DNA of 32,000 nt, from assembly GCA_965229705.1 (NCBI GenBank), contig OZ245922.1:30001-62000 (forward strand), given 5' to 3'. The notes under the pieces are model-generated. The model saw nothing but the letters and a program-made list of their open reading frames with translations. It did no database searches and was not told the origin of the DNA. The stretch is from Candidatus Saccharimonadota bacterium. Lineage in GTDB: Bacteria; Patescibacteriota; Gracilibacteria; BD1-5; UBA6164. This document shows, piece by piece, positions 3,095-16,639 of this stretch (position 1 is the stretch's first letter; the number at the start of each line of letters is the position of its first letter). The position numbers and the translations under genes are program-made.

Positions 3095-6000
3095 ATGAAA
3101 AGATTTTTGAGTCTTGGGTGTCTGATACTCATATTTTTCTCTCAAATGCAGTGGCTACAGGTCTATGCTGCACAACAATCTGAACTGAAAAATAGTAAAC
3201 AGCAGAGTACACAAACCCTCGAAGTATTAGATACTGCTATCGATCAGGCAGTAGAAAAACTCCAGAAAAATCTCACAAATGATCAGCAAACAGAGAGACT
3301 TGAAGAAAAGCATGAAGAAGTATCAGAATACCTTGAAGAAGTAGAACAAGAAATCCAAGATGCTACAAATACACAAGCCATCAAGGAAAAAGTCCAAGAG
3401 GCAAAAAAAGTCGTACTCCTCAAAGTTGTTTCTGGTGTTACTCAGTACGAAGATATAGAAGAAACAATACCACAAGAGGTAGCATCCTCACAGGAACAAA
3501 TAGAAGAGGCTATGGAAACTATTCAAGACTCACTTGAAACATCTTCATGAGACTACAGTATCATAGTACAAACGGAACTTCCTGTATCAAAGGTAAAAAA
3601 ACGCTTTCATAGCTTTGATACGAGTACCCGAGTATCGTTTATGTACGAGTCATGAGGACAACGAGTCTATGAAGTATTTTTAGAAAAAGATTCAATTTTT
3701 CGAAGAGAAATGCTCGAAGATATAGAAAAAGGAATTCTTCCAGAAAGCTTTATCGGAATACAGATAATCCTCCCAGAGGTGTACAGCCTCTTTTCTCAAA
3801 ATTCTTCCCTCCAATCGAAAAATACCTCCTCTCTCATCGAGGGAGAGGATATATCTCGTACATGGGGAATAGCAGAATACCAAACATATCATCACTTTTC
3901 AGAATCTTCTCCACAAAAAGTGACAGTTTGAGTCGTAGATACAGGAATAGATTATCTTCATCCTGATCTCAGGAATAATACTAATATCAGTAGAGGCCAA
4001 GACTTCGTGAATAATGATGATGATGCATATGATGACCAATGACATGGAACGCATGTAGCTGGCGTCATTGCTGCCAGTATCAACCAAGAGTGAATCATCT
4101 GAGTAAATCCCTATGCAGAACTTATCCCTCTCAAGATTTGTACCAATCGTGGTTTTTGCCCAAGTTACGCTGTACTCAGATCTCTCGAATACGCGACAGA
4201 AAATGGTATCGATATTCTTAATATGAGTCTGTGAGGAAGAGGAAATCCCAAAGATCATGCTATCTGTAATGCGATAGAGTCATATACCAAAAATGGATGA
4301 ATCGTTGTAGCTGCCTCAGGAAACGCCAATATCCCTGCAGAAAAATTTATTCCATGAGGGTGTTCGGAGTCAATAACAGTATGAGCCTATGACAGAGATA
4401 AGAAAAGAGCACCATTTTCAAACTATGGAAGTAAGGTAGATGTATCTGCTCCTTGAGTAGATATATACTCAACCTACCCAAAAAATACATGAAGCTATCG
4501 AAGTCTCTCAGGGACATCTATGGCAACGCCACATATCTCAGGTCTCGTCTCTCTGGCTCTTACGCAAGATAAGGATATAGGTACGAGAGATATGCGAAAA
4601 CTTCTACAAAAGCATAGTGTTCCTCTTGAAAATACTTCAGGGAAAAGTATAGGAGGAAGAGTCGATACCCTGTCTTTTCTTGAAGAGTTTCAGAAGGTAG
4701 TAGATGAAAATGAGACTATTCAAAATACCCCTCTTCCTGATCTGAGTGATCAGGATATCCTGCCAGACATCCCTGATCCCCAAACTCTCTTTCAAGAGGA
4801 AACCGAAGACTCAGGGTCCTCGCTGAGTGATGCAGAAATCATTTCAGAAACCACATATATTGATGAAGAAATATTTTTTATCCCAGAACAAGAACAGGCA
4901 GACGAACGTGTACGCGTTTCTAACCTTGAGCTTGAAGAGACAGATGGATCAGTGCCGCTTATCCAATCAATAGCACCATATACGATAGATCTCAATATTT
5001 TTTCAGAACACAGCGAAAACCAAATACAAAATAGTGAAAATCCAGAAGAAGAATTTTTTGAACTGGATGAGACAGGAGTTGTTGATGTCCAACTTGAGCA
5101 AAATAAGACGCTTACACCGTATTCATCGCAATCATATAATGCAGATGGAGAATTCATAGATCAAACACAAATCAACAGTACTGAAGATGCGGGAGAAACT
5201 GTTCCAAGTCTTCGTCTGGAAGGACCAATTGATTTGGATAATCTCCCTGCACTTCAGCCCTCTCTCGACAGTGAACAAGAAGAAGACAGTGAAGATGTCG
5301 AACAAGAACAAGATATGCAAGAAGAGTATGGAGAGGATCCCGTACAAGAGATCCAAGAGCTCTTCATAGATGGGGCTGAAAGTGGAGTGGATATAAGTAA
5401 CTTTCAAGAACAAGAGTTTACTCCTCTGCAACTCGAGCAATATCCAGAAGACTCAGAAACGCTTATATTTATAGATGAGGAAGGAAATACTATTGATACA
5501 AATCAACTTGAAGAAATTCCTCTTATAGAAGAAGTATTTGATTACAGCTACGATAGAGAAGTATTTCTTGATACTCATTCTGACTCTCTCCCTTTGGAAG
5601 AAGAGGGAAGCATGGTGGAAATAAATAGTGTATCTGATGAACAACTTCAAGAGCTGGTTATCACTGAGCATGATCCACATCTGCAAATACATCTTGAGGA
5701 TATACAGTGAGACCCACTTACAGGGTATGATGATATTGAGATACATAGCTCACCAAATCCTGACTCTCTCTGAGAGGAGAACAAGCATAGCGAGAATGAC
5801 GAAGTCGCAGCAGAGCAGGAGGAAGAAGATGGTATCATTCCTATTACTCCGATACTGGAACAGATTATTATTCCCGAGACTCAGGACGAACTCTTTGTAT
5901 GAGATGCACAAGATTCTGTAGAAATTAATAGTCTTATAGACGAAGAAGAGTGGCAAACTATAGAGATAGAAGAATATAGAGGAGAAGAGGTGCTCGAAGA

Positions 6001-9000
6001 AGAAATCAAGTCAGATACCCTCATCGAAGAAGAAGATCAGATAGAAGACAGTTTTCATCAAGAACTTACGCAAGAAGAGTATGAAGACATTATCAGTGGA
6101 AAGGCAATTATCTTCCCAACGATAGACCAGTTAGAAAATGAGATTCCAACACCAGAGGATTTATGGGAAGAAGATGAAGAGGGGATGGAGATACATAGTC
6201 TTGGTGATGAAGTTGAAGAATTTACACTTTGAGAATTTACAGAACTCTCAGAGGAAGAAATGGAAAACAGAGAATGAGCAGAAGATAGTGAGGAATCTTT
6301 TGGAATTCAAAATACATATTACTGTCACATCAACGCTGGAGAGACCTGTAGTTTTAGTATGTATAAACCATCGAGGTATCGTTTTCATAAAACAAACTCT
6401 CTGATTTCTGAGCATTACACTAGTCGTCATGTACTTACTATCAGAGGACTTCTCGAAGGAACATCTACCTATAAAATGTCTCGTTATGGAAAATATTACT
6501 ATACAATTTATGTTACTGTTACTGCTCCCAAGCCAGTAGTACCACCAAAAGATATATATGTTGATGTGGAGTATGGTAGGGGTCTATATGTGGATTTTGG
6601 GACAAAAACTAACTACTTATATGTAGACGGGAATACTCTTTGAAGGATATATGGAAGTGGTATGAATGTTTCAGGAGATACTCGAACTATGACGGTGTAC
6701 AGAAACTATACTCATGCCTATAATATTCATATAACATCAGTACCACAAGAACAAGAAATTTCTCTGATTGAATGACAGAGGTTTTATAAAAACATGTATC
6801 ATTTACAGGGTTTTACTCCAGTGATATGAGACGAAGATATTATTACATATAGTACAGGTTATCAGTCTTTGTATATACACGCAAAGACAGCTGGAAGCAC
6901 GCAGCTAAAATTGATAAATGAGTCTCTTTCGCAGCATGCTTATACCTTTAATGTTACTGTTACCCCAGCTCCACCACCACAAGAATATGATGTCACGATT
7001 GAAGAGTGAAGCAAACTCAAACTTTATTTTCCTGAACGTACTTATAGTATTGAAGAAACATATAATGATGGTGCGAGGGTATCGATAAAAAAGAGGAGTT
7101 CTTCACTTCGTATACAAGCCGACTTTCCATGAAATATTGAATATCTGACAAGAGATATAACAGGTGTACAGCAGTATCTTGTTCGTATACATATTACTAC
7201 GAAGCCTCCTGTTGTTATACAAAGTAGCGTACATGAGTGGCAGACGATTTCTCACAATCTTAATTACCCAACAAACAATGAATACTCTTATTCGTCAGAA
7301 GAACATGTGAAACTCTCAGTTGATAAGCATAGAGTATATATCACTTGAGAAAAGGCGGGGAATCTCGAGATATATGTAAAAAGAGAGGGGATTCATAGGT
7401 ACACAATACAGCTAGAGGTAAAGCCTTCACCAGCACCCCAAGAACATAGTATTCGCGTTTGAGAATGAGAACAGACGATTCTTCGTTTATGAGATACTCT
7501 TTCATATACTGTATCACATTTGCCTGAGTGACGTGGAAAATTGTCAGTATATACATGGCGTAATAAACTTTCACGACAGGCAAAGATCACGGGAACATTC
7601 CCGTGAAACAAAACGCTATTTCTTCGAGAATATCCGTCATGAATAGTGAGACATATACTCAATGTAGAAGTTGTTCCTAAACCACCAATTGTTCGAGAAG
7701 TAACGGTGAAGCAGGAGAAGTTGAAATCTCTAAATTATAAGTCTTATGATGCAGATTTTTCTCTTTCTGCTTCTTGATACATAAGTTTTTCAAAATCAGG
7801 GTCTCGTTATCAAAAAAAGAGCTATTATGTCAGGGGTCTGAAATGATGAGAAGTAGAACTTTATGTAAAAGAGCAGGGTATTCATAGGTATACTTATAAA
7901 ATTACGGTGATTCCAAAACCTGTGCCACAAGAGTATCATCTCAACTTTAGTTGGGCGTACGGACAAGCTAATATATCTTTCCCAGAATCGATTCGTAGAT
8001 ATAGGTTTTATTATCAAGGAAACACCGTTATGTATGATGATATACGAAAATATGATAAGAGTATAAGTATAGAGGTAGACAGAGTTTGAGAAGGAAAAAT
8101 CATCATCAGAGACAGAGATGACTACGATAGATATATCATACATGTAAAATCTGAACCTCACTATCGTGACTATACACTCTATACAACTGAAAGAACCTAT
8201 AACTTAGGAGTAAGTCTCAGAAATGTAAATACACATATAGTCAATAAATCAATAGCGCGACTCAACAAGTGATACCTAGAGTGACTCAAACCAGGAAAAA
8301 CAGAGCTTCATATTAGTAGTACGAGTAGAAAAAGATCATGAACAATAATAGCTATTTACCGAATACAAGTCCTGCCAAAACCAGTTCCAAAAGTCATTGA
8401 GTGTGAGACAAGCACCTATGAAACATGCTCACTTGAAGTTTCTAATGGTGGATATTATTATAACACAACTTTCCCGAATAACAGTTATGATATAACGGCA
8501 TCTAATACAGGCCTTCGTATTTCTTCACAGAGATCATGAGAATTTATCGCATATATGGAGTGAGAAAACACCAGCTATATTACGCATATATTTAAGGTGA
8601 CTTTTCATTCACGACCTCCGAAGGAATACGAGTGTCAACTTACTCGGTGATGAGACTGTCATCTTTGAAGTTTTCGTACCAATAATCGCCAACTTACATT
8701 TACAACAGACGATCCATCACTTTTTGAGATTAGATATGTGCGTGAGCGTCAATCTGCGACGACAACATGAAACAAAACATACAATGGCGAAGAATATAAA
8801 CAAATAGATGGAACATTCTCGTATAAAATTCGTTATACCCTGAGGGCAAAAGAGAATGGACAAACACAAATATATATCTACGACGATCAAGAACATCTTG
8901 CAACTATAGACCTCAATGTATACAAGATTCCTTCCATCGTTCTAGATACAACAAAAATAAGCACTAAACAAAGTGAAAAAGGCACAGTAAATATCCTCAA

Positions 9001-10795
9001 AGGATGATGAGACTACCAAAAGTACCAAGACTATGAAGACCTTGACTACTTCAACCCTGATACCAACGAACAAACAGAGGAGCAAAAGCAAGAACACTCC
9101 TACAGTGGTGATGTTACTATGCGTGAGATGACTCCATGACGTTATTATCCAAGTATACGCGACGCCTATGGACAGACAGTACAGATCACCTTTGTTGTCA
9201 AAGATACTACTCTCAAGATCTCGAACTACCGCCCTACCCTCAAGACCTGACAAACAAGCTATCTCGATATCCTTGAGAGTTATGGTACACCAAAAATAGA
9301 GATGAGCAGTGCAGACAAAGACAAACTCCAAGCACGCATCATCAAACAACAAGGATCAGAAGACCTACAAATCGAGCTTGCTGCTCAACAATCATGAACA
9401 GTAAACCTCCGAGTTACTGATCAAGAAGGGAATAGTAAGGTAGTACAACTAGTGATAGAAGGAGGAGATGTGAGTGAAGATACACAGGGAGAGGAGGAAG
9501 GGAGATCTTCATCTCAAAATCCTTGAGGAGAGAGTGATAGTGGTAATGGTGATGAGGAGAGTACAGAAGAGGAGAGTTGAAGTGCAATGAGTTTTCATGA
9601 TCTCCAGTACGGAAGAAATAATAGTGAAAATTGACTCTCAAGTCTGTATTTTGAAATACACTGAAAACAAGAGAATCTACAAGAAGTATGAATACAATAC
9701 AAAGATACAAGCTGAACATATGTAAGAGAAACATTAGAGAAAGAAGAAGACTGAATATATATACTCTGATTAGACAAAGAAATATGTATAAACTGTTACA
9801 ACGAATTTCAACCATACTTCATAGACACAAACAATACTACAACATACTATAATACCAATACATACCTCTCATTTGCAGATAATGGAATAAGAACTACAAA
9901 TACTAAAAACAAAGAAGAAGAAGACCTAGCAATAAGTTGAGTACAAGAATATGTAGAATCAACAAAGAACAAATTCTATAATATTAAAAAACAAATAAGA
10001 ACGTTTAAAGACGGTAATCAATGATACATAGATGGAAGTAAACAAGCAGTGCGTGATGCTATAGAAGATTTAAAAGAAACCCCTGAAGATATATTGAATT
10101 TGTTACAATGAAGTTGAAAGATACTATATGGGTATATCACCTGAGAAAGAACAGCAGAGGAAGATTGGAAAAAAGCGAAGGAATGATTATGAGCATTATA
10201 TAATCAAATAGAGGAAGTATATAATGAGTATGAGGAGTATAAAGAATATCTTACATCCTATAATATACAATGGATAGAATGATATGTATGAGTGAGTTCT
10301 AGTTTGATGTTTGTATGACCCGGAAAACTGAAATGAGCCAAGAGTAGTGAGAGGGTTGTGAAGAGGGTAAGGTCTACATGAAGGTCTTGATTTATAGCAA
10401 GTAAATTTAAGGATATAACTTGAGTTGATGACATAATAAAAGTAGCTCAGGATTTAGAAAAGGTCGATTGATTAGATAAAGTTAAATGATTAGAATGATG
10501 AGCAGTGAAGGTTTTAGGAGATAAGGAAGGAGTTGAAGGTGTAATGAAAAGTTTAGAAACTAAGGGGTGGAAGTGAGAAAAAAAACCATCGAATAAATGA
10601 AGTGTTTATAGGTATACATCTCCAGATTGAAAAGAATGAATAACTTTGAGAGATTTTCATAGTAGTGATACACAAGTGAGAGATGCTGGGTTTAAGCATG
10701 AAGTTACTATGGATTTGTTGAAGTGGAAAGATTGAAAACTACAAAAATTAAGATGAGAAGGGAGTGAGATAAAGTTTTTACTTCCTAATCAATAG
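3095..10795 (+). CDS. giant secreted multidomain protein (2566 aa): signal peptide, S8 subtilisin protease, acidic linker, tandem beta-rich modules, C-terminal toxin-like module
   Basis: I walked one frame (position mod 3 = 2) codon by codon from the ATG at 3095 to the TAG at 10793-10795 and found no TAA or TAG, and on the order of a hundred TGA. Track ORFs 3095, 3710, 4520, 5990, 6359 and 7907 all lie in this frame. The N-terminus MKRFLSLGCLILIFFSQMQWLQVYAA looks like a Sec signal peptide. Confidence 0.85.
3929..4640 (+). other. peptidase S8 (subtilisin) catalytic domain within the giant ORF
   Basis: Catalytic triad contexts are present: G-VVDTGIDYLHPDL (Asp), DDQ-G-HGTHVAGVIAA (His; TGA at 4040-4042 on the invariant Gly), NMSL-G-G, AASGNA and LSGTSMATPHISGL (Ser). 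Confidence 0.9.
4700..6300 (+). other. acidic (Asp/Glu-rich) low-complexity region of about 530 aa within the giant ORF
   Basis: Translation is dominated by E, D, Q, I, L and S runs, for example SLDSEQEEDSEDVEQEQDMQEEYGEDPVQE and EEDLWEEDEEGMEIHSLGDEVEE. No recognisable fold motifs. Confidence 0.7.
6310..9470 (+). repeat. about 11-12 tandem beta-rich modules (about 77 aa each, Ig-like by pattern) within the giant ORF
   Basis: Pro-rich inter-module linkers recur every 230-245 nt: TAPKPVVPPKD (about 6540), TPAPPPQEY (6975), TKPPVV (7205), KPSPAPQEH (7435), VPKPPIV (7680), IPKPVPQEY (7920), LPKPVPKV (8390), SRPPKEY (8620). Each follows an alternating hydrophobic strand such as YTIxVxV. Confidence 0.7.
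9480..10795 (+). other. C-terminal module of the giant ORF: acidic/Gly linker, helical pre-toxin-like region, putative toxin domain
   Basis: ...DGSKQAVRDAIEDLKETPEDILNLLQG...SSSLMFVGPGKLKGAKSSERVVK...KGSVYRYTSPDGKEGITLRDFHSSDTQVRDAGFKHEVTMDLLKWKDGKLQKLRGEGSEIKFLLPNQ*. The last part is duplicated downstream as orphan cassettes. No named toxin family recognised. Confidence 0.55.
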
Positions 10796-10799
10796 AATT

Positions 10800-11246
10800 A
10801 TGAAAAAAATAAAAGACATAAAAGATATATATTGAATAACAGAGTGATTTACAGATAAAGAATGAATAGAATATTTTTTATATGATTTATATGAAAATAA
10901 ATATTCAAAATGATTAAATGAATTTTGGTTGTGTAATATGCCGAAAGGAACATATAATAGAATATCAGAAGAACAACAACTAGACATTACCCTAGACTAT
11001 CTCTATCCTTTACTCAGAGATGGGAAATTGAAAATAAAAATATTATATCATGAATTAGAAAAAGATTGAGAAAATTTAAAAGAATATAAATTAGTAAAAT
11101 CAAAAGAATATACACAAGAAGAATCAAAGCAAGCTATAGAGGATATAAAGAGAGAATGGCTTTCTTTTGATGATACTAGAGAGAGAGAGAGTTTTGAAAT
11201 GCTGTGAGTATTATTTACTTTATACGAAAATGACTGGGATTGTTAA
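10800..11246 (+). CDS. immunity-like small protein 1 (148 aa), immediately downstream of the giant ORF
   Basis: ATG lies 5 nt after the giant ORF stop. I checked the frame codon by codon to the TAA at 11244-11246, with 6 TGA=Gly. Translation is MKKIKDIKDIYGITEGFTDKEGIEYFLYDLYENKYSKGLNEFWLCNMPKGTYNRISEEQQLDITLDYLYPLLRDGKLKIKILYHELEKDGENLKEY...ESFEMLGVLFTLYENDWDC*. The immunity role is inferred from position only. Confidence 0.7.
11178..11191 (+). repeat. (AG)7 dinucleotide tract inside immunity-like ORF 1
   Basis: The sequence act-agagagagagagag-tttt was read directly. The paralogous tract at 11839-11850 has (AG)6. Confidence 0.9.
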
Positions 11247-11416
11247 AAAAACGAAACTGAAAGCAATGAATAACCTTGAGAGATTTTCATAGTAGTGATA
11301 CACAAGTGAGAGATGCTGGGTTTAAGCATGAAGTTACTATGGATTTGTTGAAGATAAACAATAAGTGAGAATTTGGAAAGGTAAAAGAAATAAAATTTAT
11401 ATTACCTGAACAATAA
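11247..11416 (+). other. orphan toxin-tip cassette 2 (no start codon of its own)
   Basis: The frame (mod 2) is open from 11180 and encodes ...KKRNGKQGITLRDFHSSDTQVRDAGFKHEVTMDLLK-INNKGEFGKVKEIKFILPEQ*, with TAA at 11414-11416. The conserved part is about identical to 10636-10723 and the tail differs from the native one. Confidence 0.6.
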
Positions 11417-11424
11417 TATATTTT

Positions 11425-12084
11425 ATGGAAGATAATAACTTTAAAAAATTTTTAGAAAAAGAAAGAATCAAAGATATTTATGGTATTTGTGATTGATTTT
11501 CTATGGATGAGGAAAATGGTAAGATTGTAACTATTTATGATTTGTATTGGAATAAACAGTCGGTGTGACTAAATTATTTTATGAATAGTACTATAACTCA
11601 AGAGGAATGGGAGAAAATAAAAGATAATAGAGAACAACAACTAGACCTTACCCTAGACTATCTCTATCCTTTACTCAGAGATGGGAAATTGAAAATAAAA
11701 ATATTATATCATGAATTAGAAAAAGATTGAGAAAATTTAAAAGAATATAAATTAGTAAAATCAAAAGAATATACACAAGAAGAATCAAAGCAAGCTATAG
11801 AGGATATAAAGAGAGAATGGCTTTCTTTTGATGATACTAGAGAGAGAGAGTTTTGAAATGCTGTGAGTATTATTTACTTTATACGAAAATGACTGGGATT
11901 GTTAAAAAAACGAAACTGAAAGCAATGAATAACCTTGAGAGATTTTCATAGTAGTGATACACAAGTGAGAGATGCTGGGTTTAAGCATGAAGTTACTATG
12001 GATTTGTTGAAGTGGAAAGATTGAAAACTACAAAAATTAAGATGAGAAGGGAGTGAGATAAAGTTTTTACTTCCTAATCAATAG
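11425..12084 (+). CDS. immunity-like protein 2, fused in frame to orphan toxin-tip 3 through a 2-nt shorter AG tract (219 aa as it stands)
   Basis: I verified a continuous frame from the ATG at 11425 to the TAG at 12082-12084: MEDNNFKKFLEKERIKDIYGICDGFSMDEENGKIVTIYDLYWNKQSVGLNYFMNSTITQEEWEKIKDNREQQLDLTLDYLYPLLRDGKLK...DDTRERE-FGNAVSIIYFIRKGLGLLKKRNGKQGITLRDFHSS...KFLLPNQ*. With (AG)7 it would end ...ESFEMLGVLFTLYENDWDC* like ORF 1. Confidence 0.6.
11839..11850 (+). repeat. (AG)6 dinucleotide tract inside immunity-like ORF 2
   Basis: The sequence act-agagagagagag-tttt was read directly. It is one AG unit shorter than 11178-11191 in otherwise identical flanks. Confidence 0.9.
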
Positions 12085-12088
12085 AATT

Positions 12089-12601
12089 ATGAAAAAAATA
12101 AAAGACATAAAAGATATATATTGAATAACAGAGTGATTTACAGATAAAGAATGAATAGAATATTTTTTATATGATTTATATGAAAATAAATATTCAAAAT
12201 GATTAAATGAATTTTGGTTGTGTAATATGCCGAAAGGAACATATAATAGAATATCAGAAGAACAACAACTAGACATTACCCTAGACTATCTCTATCCTTT
12301 ACTCAGAGATGGGAAATTGAAAGTGAAAACTAAAAAACTTTTAAAAACTAAGAAAGATTTAAGAAAAGAATTACAGAACCCTCTTAATGATTGGTGGAGG
12401 CAATACTTTGAAAATTCCTTACAGGACTCTAATTGGGATTGAGCTTGGATTTATGATACAGAGTATACTAAAAAAGAGTCTCAAAAAGCAATAGAAGATA
12501 TTAAGAAAAAATGGCTTTCTATTAAAGATACTAGAGATAGGGAGAGTTTTGAGATGTCTTGAGTATTATTTACTTTATACGAAAATGACTGGGATCGTTA
12601 A
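12089..12601 (+). CDS. immunity-like small protein 3 (170 aa)
   Basis: The ATG lies 4 nt after the TAG at 12082-12084. The N-terminal half is identical to ORF 1 (offset 1289). The C-terminal half is a diverged paralogue: ...KVKTKKLLKTKKDLRKELQNPLNDWWRQYFENSLQDSNWDGAWIYDTEYTKKESQKAIEDIKKKWLSIKDTRDRESFEMSGVLFTLYENDWDR*. TAA at 12599-12601. Confidence 0.7.
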
Positions 12602-12714
12602 AAAAACGAGATTGAAAAGAATGAATAACCTTGAGAGATTTTCATAGTAGTGATACACAAGTGAGAGATGCTGGTTTTAAGCATGAAGTGGTGCATGAGC
12701 GAGAGAATTATTAA
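12602..12714 (+). other. orphan toxin-tip cassette 4 (short tail, no start codon, no following immunity ORF)
   Basis: Encodes ...KKRDGKEGITLRDFHSSDTQVRDAGFKHEV-VHERENY*, with TAA at 12712-12714. Homology to the other copies ends right after catgaagt. Confidence 0.5.
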
Positions 12715-12749
12715 ATACATCTCTTGAGAAATTATCAAAAGAGCTATGA

Positions 12750-13994
12750 ATGAAGATTGAAGACAACACCTGAGAAGTAACCATCAGAGGAAAAGAAGTA
12801 TGAAAACACTATCCAATTATACAAGACACATACAAACAAACACAAACCCTCAAGGTAGCAATAACAGATGTCACACTGAAACTCTCGAGCTATATACCGA
12901 AACTCAAAACAAATGAGGTATGATACATAGATATATTAGAGAGTTATGGAGTACCGAGAGTGTATATTCAAGAGAGTGATAAGAATAAAATAACAGGAGT
13001 TATTACAAGAGATAAAGAGACTCAAGATTTAAAACTTTGAGTGTATGTAAGGATGGCTGGAAGCTATACTCTCAAACTGGTAGATGATGAGGGGAATACA
13101 AGAGTATTGCAGGTAGAGGTGGAAGGGAGAGATGTGAGTGAGGAAAAGGAGGGAGAGCAGCAGGGGGAAGGAATTGATGAGAGTGAAAGTGATAAAGGAG
13201 AAAAATTAAGCTATGATATTGAATCAATATTTATAGAACTCTTTCAGGCAGCGTGACTAGAGTATGATCACATCGAGATTAACCATGGGGATCATGAAAA
13301 ACAAGAGAAAATAATGCTCAAAAAAGTGCATAACATGATACAAGCAAAGAGATGAAAAATTGCAGAGCTCAATTCTCTCAAATCAGCAGCAGAAATATTA
13401 AAATCAAAGTATATTGATAGAGATATCTCTGAAGACCATAAAGAACTCGTTCTGTGAATACTCGACTACATTTCTATTAAATGTACCTTAGCAATAAAAG
13501 ACCAATGAGTTTCAGATGGAGTGTCACAAGCAATAGAAGATTACATATATGACATAACAGAAACACTTGATCCCAGAGAATTTCCAGAACTTTTAAAGTG
13601 AATAACATTTTTAATACAACAGGTTTTAGAGTGAAATATACCTGATCAGATAGAAGATATATCAGAATGATATAAGGAGTTATACGAAATATTTACGAAT
13701 TTGAACGAGATACTTGATTGATTGAGTGACTACAAGAAGAGTTATTACTGATCATATATAGAAACAATAGTTGCAATGGAACTTATTCCATTTAAAGTAT
13801 GAAAGTTAAGCAAGTTGAAGAAGCAGTGAGCTTGAGATAGTAAGACTTTGAAGGAGATAAGGAATCGATCAGACCTTCTAAAAGTAGCTAAAAATAGTAT
13901 ACAAAAGTATGAACTTAAAGAAGTAAAAGAATTTGGTATAGTTCTGAAAAAGTGTGTAAAAATAGATATGAGGTATGTATGTAAATTATTGTAA
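12750..13994 (+). CDS. orphan paralogue of the giant protein C-terminus (last beta module, acidic linker, different helical pre-toxin region), 3' end replaced by the IS element
   Basis: Frame mod 0 checked codon by codon. MKIEDNTGEVTIRGKEVGKHYPIIQDTYKQTQTLKVAITDVTLKLSSYIPKLKTNEVGYIDILESYGVPRVY...VDDEGNTRVLQVEVEGRDVSEEKEGE... parallels residues encoded at about 9100-9500. ...IVAMELIPFKVGKLSKLKKQG... parallels ...LMFVGPGKLKGAKSS.... The last 17-19 codons (IVLKKCVKIDMRYVCKLL*) lie inside the IS inverted repeat. Confidence 0.65.
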
Positions 13995-15235
13995 TAAAAA
14001 TTTACAGAACAGGAATTCTTTTTTCTCAAAAGAAAGCTACGAGTTCCATTCTTAATGAATGAAAATCACGTACTTTTTTGAGAGATTTTTGTTTATTCTG
14101 TACTGCAAGAAATATAGATATTTCAGCAGATCTCTGAGTAAAGTATACTCTTCTTTTTCAAATATTAGATTTAATAAGTCCATTAAAATTCTCAATCACA
14201 TTCGTAGAATATATAAGCTTTCTGAGAGGATAAGAATATTTAAAATACCCTCCCCATACATCAATATTATAAAACCATTCCTGAAGCAAGATACTATATT
14301 TTTCCCATTTCTGCTTCATAGCCTCTAAAAACTTGAGAGCCTCCTCTTGAGAAACAGCGTTATACACTTTCTTAAACTCCATAAAAAATTCTGTTTTATC
14401 TTTGTATGAAATGGACTGGAGAAGGTTTCTGACTCTGTGCACGATACAGGGCTGAACTTGAGTGTTCGGAAAACAAGATTGTATTGCTTCTTGAAATCCG
14501 GCCAGTCCATCAACACAAGCTATGAGAATATCATCTACGCCTCGATTTTTTATACTATTTATAATTTCTTGCCATACAGCTGATGATTCTGGTTTTTGCA
14601 TCACCACAAAGTCTAAAATATCTTTTTCTCCGTATATATTTACTCAGATGATGAAATATACTGGCACACTTTTAATACAGCTTCTGCCACTATGACTCTC
14701 AACCTTCATCTTTATATAGGTAGCATCCAGATATACTATTGTGTAAAAATTAAGTAAGGTTCTTGACTTGAAACCCAGAAGTTCATCATATACGCTGATA
14801 TTTTTGAGAGCAAATCATTAGAAAATCCAAAACCATATACTTCTGTAAAATACTGTCTTATATCTTCAAAAGTATTTCATAATCGCATCAGACCAAGTAT
14901 CTGACTCCAAATGGTATCGAATATTTGTTCGAGTGTTTTTGCTTTTATTTCAGAAAAAAACACTGTGCCTTCTTCTTTTTTTCAACGGGTACGAGGTATT
15001 TCTAAATCCATACGACCAAAGTAGGTTTTAGGGCGTATCTTACGAGTTCCGTTCTTATACACATCTACTCGTGATACAAAATCCTCAAATTCTTCGTATA
15101 TAGCACTCTCTATTGTGCTTTTTAATCTTTGCAATATAGTTTCCATATCCTAAGGGATTAAAAAAATAAGGTACATATTTGCATACATACCTTATTTTTT
15201 TATCTCTTATTTTACACACTTTTTTGAAACAGTGC
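13936..15235 (-). mobile_element. IS256-family insertion sequence (about 1.3 kb)
   Basis: Terminal inverted repeats: 13936-13961 gtatagttctgaaaaagtgtgtaaaa against the reverse complement of 15210-15235 gcactgtttcaaaaaagtgtgtaaaa (20/26 match, inner 15 bp perfect). Subterminal aggtatgtatgYaaat is also shared. It encloses a mutator-type transposase. No direct target duplication is visible. Confidence 0.8.
14002..15146 (-). pseudogene. IS256-family (mutator-type) transposase, interrupted by a -1 frameshift
   Basis: N-terminal frame: METILQRLKSTIESAIYEEFEDFVSRVDVYKNGTRKIRPKTYFGRMDLEIPRTRGKKEEGTVF...GFSNDLLSK. C-terminal frame: NISVYDELLGFKSRTLLNFYTIVYLDATYIKMK...ILIACVDGLAGFQEAIQSCFPNTQVQPCIVHRVRN...STNVIENFNGLIKSNIGKRR...VL*. 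The length 1145 nt is not a multiple of 3. The frames must switch between 14739 and 14817, most simply at the A5 run (14801-14805). Confidence 0.8.
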
Positions 15236-16216
15236 CATTTTCTCTACTTGTTCTCTCACATTCTCATGATGCTTTTTATTTGAATACATATCTAAATACT
15301 CACTAACATTCACGCCTAATACCCCAGAGTATACTCTGGTATTTTTACCATCCTGAGATCTGTGAGCTTTTATTATTGGTTCTACTGGTACATAATCAAA
15401 ACCTTCTTTTTTCCAAGTATCTGTTGCTTTGTATGCATCCATCCAACTGATAAATGCACTGTTGGGAATTATTCTTAATATAACATTGTTTATGAAGTTT
15501 TTTCCTAAAAGGATTGTTTTTGTTCCTGTTTTAGGAAATTTTTTTCTGATAAATACATCCTCTCATTCATCTATACCTTTGTATAAAACAGGATTTCTTT
15601 CTTCAGCCTGTGACAATTGCTCTTTTTCAACTACTTCCACTACTTGCATAACTTCATTTTCAATCTCTTCCCGAACTTCTTCTGGCAAGTATTGAAGATT
15701 CCAGGCGATATTTGTCGCTGCTTCTTTCGGAGCTTTCTCTAGTAACAAGCGAGCGATTTTTATTTGGACTTCTTTTGGCAAGTATGGAAGATTTGAGGCG
15801 ATATTTGGCGCTGCTTCTATTGGAGCTTTTTCCAGTAACAAGTGAGCGATTTCTTTCCGGACTCCTTCTGGCAAGTATCTAAGATTTGAGGCGATATTTG
15901 GCGCTGCTTCTATTGGAGCTTTTTCCAGTAACAAGTGAGCGATTTTTATTTGGACTCTTTTTGGCAAGTATTGAAGATTCCAGGCGATATTTGTCGCTGC
16001 TTCTTTTGAATATCCATCCAAGATTTCTTGAGCTTTTTGATAATGATCACTAGGGACACGTAATAAGTCATCTATCTTTGATTGTATTTCAATTCTTATA
16101 GCATCGAAACTATATTGATCCCTTAATTGCTGTGCTCTTTTTTGAAGTACTTTATAGGTTAATTTTGGCTTATGTGGTAAGTCAAACATCTCGGGATATA
16201 CTACAGTTGTATGCAT
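15212..16216 (-). CDS. repeat protein: 4 x 31-aa HEAT-like repeats plus a kinase-N-lobe-like C-terminal region, 3' end truncated by the IS
   Basis: Track ORFs 15563-16216 and 15212-15442 join in frame through TGA=Gly. Repeats follow EAAxNIAxNLxYLPxxVxxxIAxLLLEKAPx. Then comes ...FPKTGTKTILLGKNFINNVILRIIP...EGFDYVPVEPII...RVYSGVLGVNVSEYL.... The last 8 codons (ALFQKSV*) lie inside the IS inverted repeat. Confidence 0.7.
15655..16005 (-). repeat. tandem 93-bp DNA repeats (about 3.7 copies) encoding the 31-aa repeats
   Basis: Near-identical units such as ggcgatatttggcgctgcttctattggagctttttccagtaacaagtgagcgattt recur at a 93-bp period. Confidence 0.85.
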
Positions 16217-16315: not shown

Positions 16316-16639
16316 ATGTATAAGGGTTATGAACAACGGAGGTTCATATCAGGTATGAAAGATATAAATGAGGTATCTCTTATAATGGATAAGAGAATTG
16401 GAAAAGATACTTTTCGAGTTATAGGTGATGTTATCAAAAAATTATCACATATGAATGGAAGTGAGATTAGTGAATATTCACATGGAGATACTCCATATCT
16501 TGCTACAAAAAATATAGGAGATATATTGAAAAGCGTCTTGTTTTTTTATAGAAGCCCTCAGTACGAATATGTAAAAGAAAATCATGATATTGAGAAAATA
16601 AAGAAAAATATGCCTCCTAAAAATTTTTTCAAAAACTAA
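16316..16639 (+). CDS. hypothetical protein (107 aa); C-terminal part resembles the end of a Panacea/DUF4065 (SocA-like) domain
   Basis: ATG with an in-frame TAG 5 codons upstream; TAA stop; no TGA. ...VIGDVIKKLSHMNGSEISEYSHGDTPYLATKNIGDIL... matches the pattern sG.eL...sH.e..PW by eye only. Confidence 0.45.
   Translation: MYKGYEQRRFISGMKDINEVSLIMDKRIGKDTFRVIGDVIKKLSHMNGSEISEYSHGDTPYLATKNIGDILKSVLFFYRSPQYEYVKENHDIEKIKKNMPPKNFFKN

Follow-up and report, generated by a model that had tools for sequence, protein, structure and literature searches.

An array of silent tail and N-half cassettes behind a candidate polymorphic-toxin gene in a Patescibacteria genome that reads TGA as glycine

In Neisseria pilE/pilS and Borrelia vlsE, a surface antigen is varied under immune pressure by silent-cassette gene conversion, in which promoterless, incomplete copies donate sequence to one expression site. 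The variable mini-cassettes are bracketed by short conserved blocks, and the donors need no intact gene. For E-type nuclease colicins, Riley reportedly described in 1993 an "immunity region" in which substitutions cluster in the toxin 3′ end and the adjoining immunity gene. CDI loci consist of a full-length toxin and immunity gene followed by promoterless cdiA-CT fragments that have no start signals and carry their own cdiI (Poole et al., 2011, PMC3150448). These orphans have been proposed as a recombination reservoir; modules pass from strain to strain, and the arrays are broken up by IS elements (PMC3150448). For Rhs and Vibrio cholerae T6SS loci, homologous recombination is described as carrying an orphan module into the expressed gene (Koskiniemi et al., 2014, PMC3967940; Kirchberger et al., 2017, PMC5361080). 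Origin by displacement has been proposed for Vibrio cholerae T6SS immunity arrays and Rhs orphan strings (PMC5361080). Strings of type VII EsaG/TipC immunity paralogues have two or three high-similarity blocks in common, between which recombination yields chimeras, losses and expansions (Garrett et al., 2022, PMC9484751). In beta-augmentation CdiA-CT/CdiI pairs (Morse et al., 2012, 2015), closely related toxins have a conserved catalytic core and bind the immunity protein through a short element, a beta-hairpin; near-identical non-cognate immunity proteins give no protection (PMC9086364).

The locus described here lies in a 32-kb window, by which we mean the whole stretch of DNA analysed. The genome decodes TGA as Gly (table 25). 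This is supported by an alignment in which 20 Gly and 0 Trp stand against TGA codons, and by an invariant Gly position of the subtilase motifs that is encoded by TGA. An earlier note on this DNA had rightly spoken of a table-25 CPR genome, and the related chromosome OZ245768.1 is recorded as a Patescibacteria MAG. In the product of the giant gene (Table 1), the N-terminus is hydrophobic and resembles a signal peptide. An S8 subtilase domain lies at aa 275–508 (nt 3917–4618; Pfam Peptidase_S8, E = 8.6e-52), and the protein further has an acidic region, Ig-like repeats and, at its C-terminus, a toxin-like module. This protease-bearing protein looks Sec-secreted.

Table 1. Features of the giant gene, the cassette array and its distal end.
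Feature	Position	Strand	Basis or remark
Giant gene, 2,566 aa, TGA = Gly	3095..10795	+	open only when TGA is read through
Shared module: last ~390 codons of giant gene plus cassette array	9630..12763	+	common to OZ245768.1
Junction motif LMFVGPGKLK	10304..10333	+	read from sequence; C-terminal domain downstream differs between homologues
C-terminal toxin-like domain, ~100 aa (aa ~2468–2566)	10496..10795	+	six-lineage alignment; matches no described family
Tip block T copy 1, expressed, upstream homology block	10625..10723	+	repeat analysis
Tail type A of expressed toxin: WKDGKLQKLRGEGSEIKFLLPNQ, then stop	10724..10795	+	translation
Small ORF 1, 148 aa, presumed cognate immunity gene	10800..11246	+	N-half a, middle x (short), (AG)7, intact family C-terminus
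Block M copy 1 (…QQLDITLDYLYPLLRDGKLK…)	10970..11040	+	repeat family D4; other copies 11631–11701, 12259–12329
Long conserved block: small ORF 1 3′ part, spacer, silent tip copy 2	11105..11353	+	family D1 (230 nt)
Blocks equivalent to 11105..11353	11764–12012 and 12460–12689	+	family D1
(AG)7 tract of small ORF 1, family frame kept	11178..11191	+	sequence
Silent tail type B: INNKGEFGKVKEIKFILPEQ, then stop	11354..11416	+	translation
Small ORF 2, 219 aa including fusion	11425..12084	+	N-half b, middle x, frameshifted at (AG)6 (11839–11850)
Silent tail type A, second copy	12013..12084	+	within 100% identical repeat
Small ORF 3, 170 aa	12089..12601	+	N-half a, middle y (long), interrupted tract AGAGATAGGGAGAG (12533–12546), intact C-terminus
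Silent tip copy 4, ends after …KHEV, closes array	12613..12689	+	repeat alignment
Linker fragment of EndoU-type orphan module, no toxin domain behind	12681..12763	+	90–92% identical to L001 12533–12615, 17425–17507
Long orphan module, IS-cut	12750..13927	+	aligns to giant-protein aa 2003–2464; repeat D6
IS256-family insertion sequence, transposase split in two ORFs	13928..15243	-	Pfam Transposase_mut E 4.6e-41, 6.5e-06

That the giant protein behaves as a polymorphic toxin is supported by its homologues, which hold EndoU or colicin-D at the position of its C-terminal domain, and by five further lineages (L003, L006, L008, L009, L011) in which a small-ORF homologue follows 2–7 nt behind the toxin-like domain. 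Two contigs of one JGI metagenome (Ga0256834), L010 and L011, have the pre-toxin sequence MVFGPGKLKATKSVDRIVNKI... in common through GPGKLK…, after which L010 continues with a colicin-D-like domain and L011 with the toxin-like domain of the giant gene. The order in L008 is a Colicin_D domain (E = 2.6e-11), its partner ORF, a stand-alone toxin-like domain and a small-ORF homologue. At the same locus, OZ245768.1 has two long orphan modules with a terminal EndoU_bacteria domain, and a 293-aa ORF lies behind each of them; L003 has the classic long orphan only and no mini-cassette array.

Invariant residues in the six-lineage alignment of the C-terminal domain include R, S, T, E, K and F. The alignment holds no invariant histidine or obvious catalytic motif, which counts against the reading favoured below. 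The domain had no reproducible Pfam match and none in PDB, PADLOC or PHROG, the small ORF family had none in Pfam, and neither matched known toxin or immunity families. A weak match to DUF7028 did not recur in relatives. A profile search with the small ORFs gave 38 representative relatives, every one a small protein, and the small ORFs have no signal peptide and no membrane segment. An AF2 model of a small-ORF relative (moderate, pLDDT 71) places the N-half in the first two helices and blocks M and C in a long helix and sheet.

The toxin tip occurs in four near-identical copies, as the earlier note had claimed. A 44-nt core, TTGAGAGATTTTCATAGTAGTGATACACAAGTGAGAGATGCTGG, is exact in 4/4 copies on the + strand (10646, 11276, 11935 and 12631; 0 expected, none in 100 shuffles), and with TGA read as Gly all four encode GITLRDFHSSDTQVRDAGFKHEV. 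The silent tips are without the 5′ 98% of the giant gene. Translation with TGA = Gly returned the same tails as that note had assigned, WKDGKLQKLRGEGSEIKFLLPNQ for copies 1 and 3, INNKGEFGKVKEIKFILPEQ for copy 2 and VHERENY for copy 4. It had simply listed them; they are in fact homologous, all ending in E[IV]KF[LI]LP, which is kept as protein although the DNA diverges, and the truly variable piece is a stretch of 8–14 aa. Small ORFs start 4, 8 and 4 nt past the tail stops (10800, 11425 and 12089), in agreement with the spacing of 4–8 nt read before, and the second conserved block placed in mid-ORF was recovered at 10970, 11631 and 12259 (family D4). That tips 2–4 are without a start of their own needs amending for copy 3, which together with its tail A is fused in frame to small ORF 2. 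This ORF runs on into the tip owing to an (AG)n tract that is shorter by 2 nt; it equals public protein P0001, except that TGA is translated there as W.

The small ORF also contains a second variable segment, which is either short or long. A third block of conserved sequence covers the 3′ end of the ORF and the spacer and extends into the next tip. The per-column identity profile of the units accordingly resolves into three conserved and two variable blocks. Positions 11935–12323 are 100% identical to 10646–11034 (U1 = U3 over 389 nt), and U1 = U2 over 220 nt within the window. Across the small ORF N-half, dN/dS is 0.2–1.15, a range that is at most suggestive. An (AG)5–7 tract that frameshifts most silent small ORFs had been overlooked. 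In the two genomes compared below, 8/9 silent small ORFs have (AG)5 or (AG)6 and have lost the family-conserved C-terminus FE..V.FTLPENEW, and both expression-site small ORFs have (AG)7; these length differences, like those in A-runs, may be consensus errors of long-read assemblies. Mapped on the AF2 model, the frameshift would remove the last helix and strand.

Nine tip copies are present in OZ245768.1. DNA homology to the window is limited to the shared module, and identity of the giant proteins rises from 20–35% to 85–100% at about aa 2175. The GC content of the module is 0.287, versus 0.35–0.38 elsewhere in the window. The whole module is horizontally shared. The two expressed toxin/immunity pairs are 93–100% identical on both flanks and 45–72% identical across 10701–10950; they differ only across the tail and N-half cassette, and silent copies L5 and L7 of OZ245768.1 match the window's expressed cassette at 97.7% identity. 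A comparison with a related MAG, as the earlier note had proposed, revealed cassette shuffling in which flanking segments reassort and tail plus N-half stay intact. The co-variation it had seen holds in 11/11 units of the two genomes, tail types A/B/C/D pairing with N-half types a/b/c/d, although two adjoining parts that no conserved block separates would show the same strict linkage by contiguity. All eight N-half × middle combinations and several T-haplotype × tail combinations were found among these units. Type A occurs twice in the window, and A ×2, C ×2 and D ×3 in OZ245768.1. The mini-cassette array was seen in these two genomes alone; as they share one horizontally transferred module, it is in effect one evolutionary instance.

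At the distal end, the long orphan module is a diverged copy of the giant protein's last ~460 aa, starting with the last Ig-like repeat and including a junction-like motif. The IS256-family element that cuts it has terminal inverted repeats and ends at 13928. A second tier of classic whole-domain orphan modules had likewise escaped the earlier note.

On balance, we think it probable that a polymorphic-toxin locus of a Patescibacteria bacterium with TGA = Gly has its 3′ end in the window, and that its array reshuffles tail plus N-half cassettes by recombination or conversion. Linkage, mosaicism and the cassette-only difference agree with the swapping proposed in the earlier note; the toxin and immunity roles we infer. 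The last ~100 aa of the giant secreted protein form a toxin-like domain whose family is undescribed, and the next gene (148 aa, also of an undescribed family) would encode its immunity partner. Behind this expressed pair, each of the tandem silent partial units comprises the last ~55 toxin codons, as a ~100-nt conserved block T and a variable tail, and an immunity-like gene. In that gene a variable N-half precedes the 65–70-nt conserved block M, the middle is dimorphic, and a conserved 3′ block of ~150 nt continues into the T that comes next. The units could be reshuffled by homologous recombination or gene conversion between the three block types. In the expressed pair, exchange could replace the T-to-M segment alone, that is, the toxin's C-terminal loop and last strand plus the immunity protein's first two helices; the catalytic core would be left untouched, and the expressed immunity gene would keep its intact 3′ end. 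Tail and N-half may form the toxin/immunity recognition surface, so that each swap would change who is protected from whom. This scheme presumes a toxic domain, a protective small ORF, tail and N-half in physical contact, and switching at a useful rate.

The array could instead be a passive relic, the leftovers of successive replacements of toxin 3′ ends and immunity genes followed by unequal crossing-over; if retained for any purpose, it would then serve as a stock of spare immunity genes and not as a donor library. We regard this as rather unlikely. An effector 3′ remnant with an immunity gene pushed downstream is what the published displacement model describes (PMC5361080), the duplicate units, the recombination scars and the IS at the distal end fit, and the frameshifted small ORFs could be simple decay. 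Yet the junction is identical in every unit (immunity stop, ~11 nt, then T), which argues for one founding event plus homologous exchange and against repeated illegitimate insertions. The silent copies are free of stops and frameshifts outside the (AG)n tract, and the tail end is conserved as protein over diverged DNA. Spare immunity genes should mostly keep the conserved C-terminus, yet most are without it, and the expression sites differ by exactly one cassette, which is also present as a silent copy. We give a small chance to the (AG)n tract as the main device, with slipped-strand switching among intact, truncated and tip-fused small ORFs and functional fusions (219 aa here, 222 aa in OZ245768.1), for example as decoy or tethered antidote. 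Tract lengths of 7, 6 and 5 give all three frames, these are the sole dinucleotide runs of at least 5 units in the window, relatives encode RERES without a pure repeat, and the tip frame is open back to the tract in every copy. However, in the fusions an N-half is joined to a tail that is not its cognate (b to A; a to D), the tip covers no more than roughly half of the toxin-like domain, the frame is intact in both expression-site genes, and the length differences may be consensus errors.

A slim chance attaches to the view that there is no toxin system, the giant protein being a surface protease or adhesin with a tail varied, for example, to escape recognition by phage or host, and the small ORF serving as chaperone, anchor or partner in export. 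Neither protein matches a known toxin or immunity family, an invariant catalytic signature is not evident, and an S8 plus Ig-like architecture equally fits a surface protein; against this stand the bona fide RNase toxin domains (EndoU, Colicin_D) that homologues hold there, L008, where domain and partner form one cassette behind a colicin-D toxin and its partner ORF, and small ORFs without signal peptide or membrane segment. Collapsed, expanded or chimeric strain variants of a single toxin/immunity pair are very improbable. The source is a metagenome-assembled genome, and perfect repeats of 220–389 nt between units are hard for short-read assemblers, but the same unit architecture, in different order and content, appears in two assemblies that are independent of each other (one a 1.0-Mb contig, the other a chromosome-level record of 1.49 Mb), the unit junctions are regular, and the flanks on both sides of the array are unique.

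Like CDI loci, the locus has an expressed, presumed toxin/immunity pair followed by silent 3′ fragments, each with an immunity-like gene, and a stretch also present in the main gene marks where a fragment begins (PMC3150448). CDI orphans begin at or before VENN and carry complete toxin domains that are unrelated to one another, with complete and likewise unrelated immunity genes (PMC3150448), whereas in this array the block held in common is internal to the toxin-like domain, only the last ~20–25 codons vary, and a second boundary falls within the immunity gene. The giant-gene locus also has no CdiB/TPS or VENN features and a Sec-like route with an S8 protease domain. Orphaned 3′ regions with immunity genes downstream, and modules gained horizontally, recall the Rhs loci (PMC3967940) and the T6SS arrays of Vibrio cholerae (PMC5361080); there, whole C-terminal domains and whole immunity genes are swapped, unlike in this array. 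Domain matches and the gene list gave no RHS/YD repeats or T6SS genes in the window. The block logic of EsaG/TipC resembles that of blocks M and C, but those arrays (PMC9484751) contain immunity genes only, with no toxin fragment per unit and the toxin gene uninvolved, and their families are unrelated to the small ORFs (no Pfam match). Variants of beta-augmentation CDI pairs and E colicins are alleles across strains or plasmids, whereas the variants here form a genomic array of silent sub-domain cassettes; unlike in the beta-augmentation pairs, contact between tail and immunity protein is here presumed. The likeness to pilE/pilS and vlsE lies in the array layout, and unidirectional conversion or a dedicated initiator is not part of it; unlike there, a toxin and its antidote gene would convert together in one tract. 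Read in this way, the array would follow the plan of the orphan toxin/immunity arrays already known, at a finer grain.

The open reading frames of the window depend on how TGA is read. With TGA as a stop codon the longest ORF was 1.2 kb, and reading TGA through opened a single ORF of 7.7 kb. The invariant glycines of the subtilase motifs in this ORF are encoded by TGA (DDQ-TGA-HGTHVAG and NMSL-TGA-G), and when the protein was aligned with its giant homologue from a second genome, the residues opposite TGA codons were Gly 20 times and Trp 0 times. Thus, the code is table 25, as the earlier note had assumed. The public proteins of both genomes (P0001-P0008) were deposited with TGA translated as Trp (table 4), where the alignment supports Gly (table 25). 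This misstates ∼6% of the residues of these proteins, and the W-rich deposited sequences worsen homology searches and structure prediction.

The giant protein starts with a hydrophobic segment that, as read from the sequence, resembles a signal peptide. It continues with an S8 subtilase domain (Pfam Peptidase_S8, E 8.6e-52) and an extended acidic region, Ig-like repeats come next, and a C-terminal module completes it. A Pfam scan over the whole protein matched S8 and, weakly, Ig-like domains only. The genes neighbouring the locus are housekeeping genes.

Downstream of the toxin-like gene the window carries an array of units, each made of a tip block (T), a tail and a small ORF, the presumed immunity gene. 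The peptides and coordinates that the earlier note gave for tips, tails, small ORFs and the second conserved block were right. The 44-nt core of the tip block occurs four times without mismatch, against a chance expectation of 0, and the repeat families exceed what simple tandem duplication would give. Tip copies 2-4 had been taken to be untranslatable; this fails for copy 3, into which small ORF 2 runs on to give a 219-aa fusion. Promoter and terminator scans of the array, which are weak evidence, found no excess of either and no internal terminator, and Rfam and tRNA scans of the window gave no matches.

Features of the locus and its surroundings (window coordinates unless marked L001, the array locus of OZ245768.1)
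Feature	Coordinates	Strand	Remarks
Giant protein gene	3095-10795	+	2,566 aa, table 25
Region with DNA homology to OZ245768.1	9630-12763		
Junction motif	10304-10333		LMFVGPGKLK
44-nt core of tip block	10646, 11276, 11935, 12631		
230-nt repeat family	11105, 11764, 12460		
300-nt repeat pair	10628, 11917		
220-nt repeat pair	10970, 11631		
71-nt repeat family	10970, 11631, 12259		
Small ORF 1	10800-11246		148 aa, starts 4 nt past giant-gene stop
Small ORF 2, preceded by tip copy 2 and tail B	from 11425		
Small ORF 3, preceded by tip copy 3 and tail A	12089-12601		170 aa
Tip copy 4			last in array, truncated
EndoU linker fragment	12681-12763		83 nt
IS256-family element	13928-15243		terminal inverted repeats 13928-13986 and 15177-15243
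Split IS256-family transposase	14002-14709, 14736-15146	-	two ORFs
ORF adjoining the IS	15212-16216	-	334 aa; four tandem ∼33-aa repeats (…LLLEKAPIEAAPNIASNLRYLPEGVRKEIAH…); no Pfam match
ORF with weak antitoxin-like match	16316-16639	+	107 aa; SocA_Panacea, E 2.5e-4, below Pfam threshold
EndoU_bacteria orphan modules	L001 11285-14130, 16903-19022		near-identical; each with identical 293-aa ORF and 64-aa ORF
Y1 (IS200/IS605-type) transposase gene	L001 19555-19992		

A protein search led to a 222-aa fusion protein of OZ245768.1, a chromosome-level MAG of 1,489,121 bp labelled 'Patescibacteria group bacterium'. Its locus encodes a 2,700-aa S8 protein and contains eight small ORFs and nine tip copies. 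A genome-collection scan found OZ245768.1 only, and scanning metagenomes with the tip alignment gave no matches. We derived the layout of a unit from pairwise alignments and a per-column identity profile over the 11 complete units of both genomes. Conserved and variable segments alternate, and the conserved ones lie within the toxin-like domain and within the small ORF.

Segments of a unit, in order
Segment	Extent	Mean pairwise identity
T	∼100 nt, toxin residues …GITLRDFHSSDTQVRDAGFKHEVTMDLLK	88-92%
V1	remaining tail and its stop, then 4-12 nt and the first ∼60-75 codons of small ORF	36-79%
M	65-70 nt, …QLDITLDYLYPLLRDGKLK	83-92%
V2	two forms, short (x) and long (y)	variable
C	∼150 nt, 3′ part of small ORF, ∼11-nt spacer, up to next T	82-93%

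The window array is a recombinant mosaic. Unit 1 is identical to unit 3 across 389 nt (T, V1 and M) and to unit 2 across 220 nt (M, V2x and C), so that unit 1 combines N-half a with form x, unit 2 b with x, and unit 3 a with y. The tails are mutually homologous and have the end E[IV]KF[LI]LP in common; the real difference between them lies in the 8-14 residues between DLLK and this end motif. The N-halves are mutually homologous as well, but identity between types is only ∼35–50%.

Four tail types were distinguished in the pooled units, and each was found with one type of N-half.

Tail types and the N-halves that accompany them in the 11 pooled units
Tail	Tail sequence	Start of N-half	Units
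A	WKDGKLQKLRGEG[SI]EIKFLLPNQ	MKKIKDIKDIY	4
B	[IT]NNKGEFGKVKE[IV]KFILP[EK]Q	MEDNNFKKFLEK	2
C	TNN[NK]GELKPIEKEVKFLLPNK	MI[ND]NELNEFLEK	2
D	EGGIDGPSEIKFLLPK	MLKKAYTNGLII	3

The co-variation of tail and N-half, noted earlier for the window, thus extends to 11 of 11 units in two genomes. By simple arithmetic the chance of a perfect match under random pairing is 4!·2!·2!·3!/11! ≈ 1.4e-5, a figure that treats as independent units that are not. Each of the four N-half types is present with either V2 form, eight combinations in all, and amino-acid variants in T (TQVRDAGFKH, KQVREAGYRH, KQVNDAGFKH and others) are freely assorted with respect to the tails. Strict pairing of tail and N-half together with free assortment of V2 and T variants implies repeated crossovers in T and in M or C, and none inside V1. 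Cassette shuffling of the kind envisaged in the earlier note is apparent between the two arrays, which differ in order and content: A-a-x, B-b-x, A-a-y in the window and C-c-x, C-c-y, D-d-y, B-b-y, A-a-x, D-d-y, A-a-y, D-d-x in OZ245768.1. The N-halves gave dN/dS values of 0.2-1.15, calculated from sequences too few and too diverged for these values to serve as a test.

The expressed pairs of the two genomes differ in a single segment. Identity is 93–100% over 10221-10700 and again over 11010-11190, and falls to 45–72% over 10701-10950, which corresponds to V1. The expressed cassette is A-a in the window and C-c in OZ245768.1, and the silent copies L5 and L7 of OZ245768.1 match the window V1 at 97.7% identity. 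As a comparison between genomes, this difference is what would be left by replacement of the T-to-M segment from a silent cassette.

The small ORFs carry a second variable element near their end. The residues RERES are encoded by a pure (AG)n run in the window and OZ245768.1, and by mixed codons in relatives; such runs are the sole dinucleotide runs of at least 5 units in the 32-kb window. A tract of n = 7 retains the frame for the family-wide C-terminus …FE..V.FTL.ENEW, n = 6 fuses the small ORF to the next tip, and n = 5 gives the third frame. Both expression-site small ORFs have n = 7, and small ORF 3 of the window has an interrupted, in-frame version. The 8 other silent copies have n = 5 or 6, with loss of the last helix and strand of the predicted model. 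Outside the tract the silent copies contain no stops or frameshifts, and V1, the part that would be transferred, is intact. Donors thus look silent on both sides: their toxin fragments lack a 5′ end and their immunity genes a proper 3′ end. Simple-sequence contingency loci are defined by an intragenic repeat tract whose changes in length switch the frame. Here the tract lengths 7, 6 and 5 occupy all three frames in a comparison between paralogues, where sequencing error is possible, and the tract may act as a switch, mark the onset of decay or partly reflect consensus errors.

The shared part of the two loci is confined to the module and array. The giant proteins are 20–35% identical over ∼1,450 aligned residues and 85–100% identical over the last ∼390, and DNA homology is limited to the region 9630-12763. 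This region has a GC content of 0.287 and a strong G>C skew, compared with 0.35-0.38 in other parts of the window and 0.25-0.28 in OZ245768.1. Most likely, judging from this composition and identity, the module and array were imported from a low-GC relative. On that reading the mini-cassette array so far represents one evolutionary instance in two hosts, and such modules would move between lineages whose giant proteins are only 20–35% identical outside the module.

The linker fragment at the end of the array is 90–92% identical to the linker of the EndoU orphan modules of OZ245768.1 and is joined directly to the truncated tip copy 4, with no EndoU domain behind it, which marks it as a recombination scar. 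The truncated final tip ends at the identical nucleotide (after …AAGT) at 12689 in the window and at ∼11258 in L001, and the following DNA differs. Further downstream, the IS256-family element severs the 3′ end of a long orphan module, and the final ∼22 codons of that module derive from the IS. A search for the continuation of this module beyond the IS did not find it.

The C-terminal domain of the giant protein spans ∼100 aa (aa ∼2468-2566). Residues invariant in six lineages include an R, an S, a T, an E and a K (R83, S88, T102, E122 and K124 in the alignment) as well as an F. Neither the domain nor the small ORFs matched described families in Pfam, NCBIfam, PADLOC, PHROGs or PDB sequence and profile searches. 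A weak match of the tip region to DUF7028 (23.1 bits against the gathering cut-off of 27) was dropped, as none of 4 diverged homologues matched. A HicA-like fold, suggested by the pattern 'helix-GW…KGS…β-strands', found no sequence or profile support in the PDB, and the His of RDFH is not conserved. An RNase activity of the domain is a reasonable guess by analogy, made solely because alternative domains at the same position are RNases.

Behind the array of OZ245768.1 lie two long orphan modules, each of which duplicates the pre-toxin part of the giant protein, ends in an EndoU_bacteria domain and precedes a 293-aa ORF. Two contigs of the JGI metagenome Ga0256834 (L010 and L011) have the pre-toxin sequence MVFGPGKLKATKSVDRIVNKI… in common; in L011 it leads into a window-type domain and a small-ORF homologue, whereas in L010 a colicin-D-like domain comes next, ahead of an 82-aa ORF and a small-ORF homologue that stands as an orphan. 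The window has the same junction motif (LMFVGPGKLK). In another lineage (L003-L005) the gene for a secreted protein of 1,939 aa precedes a long orphan module of the classic type.

Profile searching with full HMMER yielded 38 representative relatives of the small ORF, all small proteins and most from TGA-recoded genomes. Wherever context was fetched (L003-L005, L006/L007, L008, L009 and L011), the relative lay 2-7 nt 3′ of a domain homologue. Adjacency at 2-8 nt holds in the window, OZ245768.1 and five further lineages. One of these loci, L008 (Logan SRR22388013 contig, 1-1525), is not TGA-recoded. In it, a Colicin_D C-terminal domain (E 2.6e-11) and a 124-aa partner ORF precede a stand-alone 140-aa protein with the window-type domain, next to which lies a small-ORF relative. 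The pair thus circulates outside code-25 lineages too.

To place the unit blocks on a structure we used P0039, a non-recoded relative of the small ORF, for which AlphaFold2 gave a moderate model from 11 sequences (pLDDT 71, pTM 0.64). A Foldseek search of this model against the PDB found no neighbour (best E 0.32, TM < 0.3), and the model of the natural fusion P0001 (8 sequences, pLDDT 38.7) was unusable. Placed by hand via sequence motifs, the N-half of V1 corresponds to the first two helices, M to a long helix and the first strand, V2 to a low-confidence insertion, and C to a strand, two helices and the last strand. This mapping suggests that the conserved blocks form a scaffold and V1 a discrete N-terminal element.

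Taken together, we consider it rather probable that this is a polymorphic toxin/immunity locus with an orphan array that works at sub-domain resolution. Recombination via T and M (or C) between silent and expressed units would exchange the C-terminal loop and last strand of the toxin together with the first two helices of the immunity protein, pieces that presumably form the toxin/immunity recognition surface. The sequences establish the anatomy of the units and their history of recombination. The earlier reading of the array as exchangeable toxin and immunity determinants is largely borne out by the sequence and the comparison of loci; the putative toxin and immunity roles are suggested by gene context, which is consistent throughout. 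The main rival, which we regard as somewhat doubtful, is that displacements and duplications have left the array behind as a passive record, an origin that has been proposed for V. cholerae and Rhs loci (PMC5361080). Against it, the junction is identical in every unit, damage to the silent copies is limited to the repeat tract, the conserved C-terminus is missing from most silent immunity genes, and exactly one cassette distinguishes the two expression sites. An assembly artefact is unlikely, as the architecture agrees in two independent megabase-scale assemblies. A non-toxin system of surface variation and a fusion-protein device driven by the (AG)n tract are minor alternatives.

A bolder version of the sub-domain reading, which we put forward tentatively, is a programmed, pilS-like conversion in which silent mini-cassettes would be copied via T and M into the expressed pair, re-tuning its specificity, with (AG)n keeping the donor immunity genes off or switchable. 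If true, this would let a genome-reduced CPR bacterium vary its kin-recognition or attack profile combinatorially without whole toxin genes. The exchanged piece comprises a ∼20-aa toxin tail and about 60-75 residues of the immunity protein, with homology blocks within both genes. If these pieces are the recognition surface, the locus would be a natural map of the toxin/immunity interface and an example of two genes co-converted as a single cassette. The locus also supplies a toxin-like domain and a partner family, both previously undescribed, and, from TGA=Gly Patescibacteria, a giant S8-protease type of polymorphic toxin whose junction motif is GPGKLK. It is of interest for interbacterial toxin and CPR biology.

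We compared the locus with known systems. It has sequence-level features of polymorphic toxin systems (sensu Zhang/Aravind 2012; Jamet and Nassif, 2015), namely a large multidomain, apparently secreted protein with N-terminal export/processing domains, a C-terminal domain that varies behind a common upstream region (L010 and L011; the EndoU modules of OZ245768.1), and a small, co-inherited gene in the immunity position directly downstream. The Pfam scan of the giant protein found none of the CDI hallmarks (CdiB, TPS domain, FHA repeats), and the junction is GPGKLK in place of the VENN that precedes the CT. It also gave no RHS repeat match, where the Rhs class is defined by an RHS/YD shell and a PxxxxDPxGL motif, and no match to the N-terminal DUF1020 of MafB, whose mafA/mafI context is replaced here by housekeeping neighbours. 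With these defining domains absent, the locus is not a CDI, Rhs or MafB member. As in pilE/pilS-type systems, one expressed copy is accompanied by incomplete, apparently promoterless donors with short conserved blocks around variable segments. The proposal that a short toxin element sets immunity specificity has a precedent in the colicin 'immunity region'. Beta-augmentation CdiA-CT/CdiI pairs provide another (PMC9086364). The locus works like the orphan arrays of CDI (PMC3150448) and Rhs (PMC3967940) and like the EsaG/TipC immunity paralogues with their block-mediated recombination (PMC9484751). Our open-access full-text search found no paper linking polymorphic toxins with Gracilibacteria or Absconditabacteria, and none describing such a system in Patescibacteria. 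To our knowledge, the exchangeable unit in described orphan toxin/immunity arrays always comprises the complete toxin domain and the complete immunity gene. Unlike CDI, Rhs, MafB, EsaG/TipC and colicins, the present locus has homology blocks that lie within the toxin domain and within the immunity gene, and it differs from the same systems in its small exchanged unit, its frameshifted donors and its host lineage.
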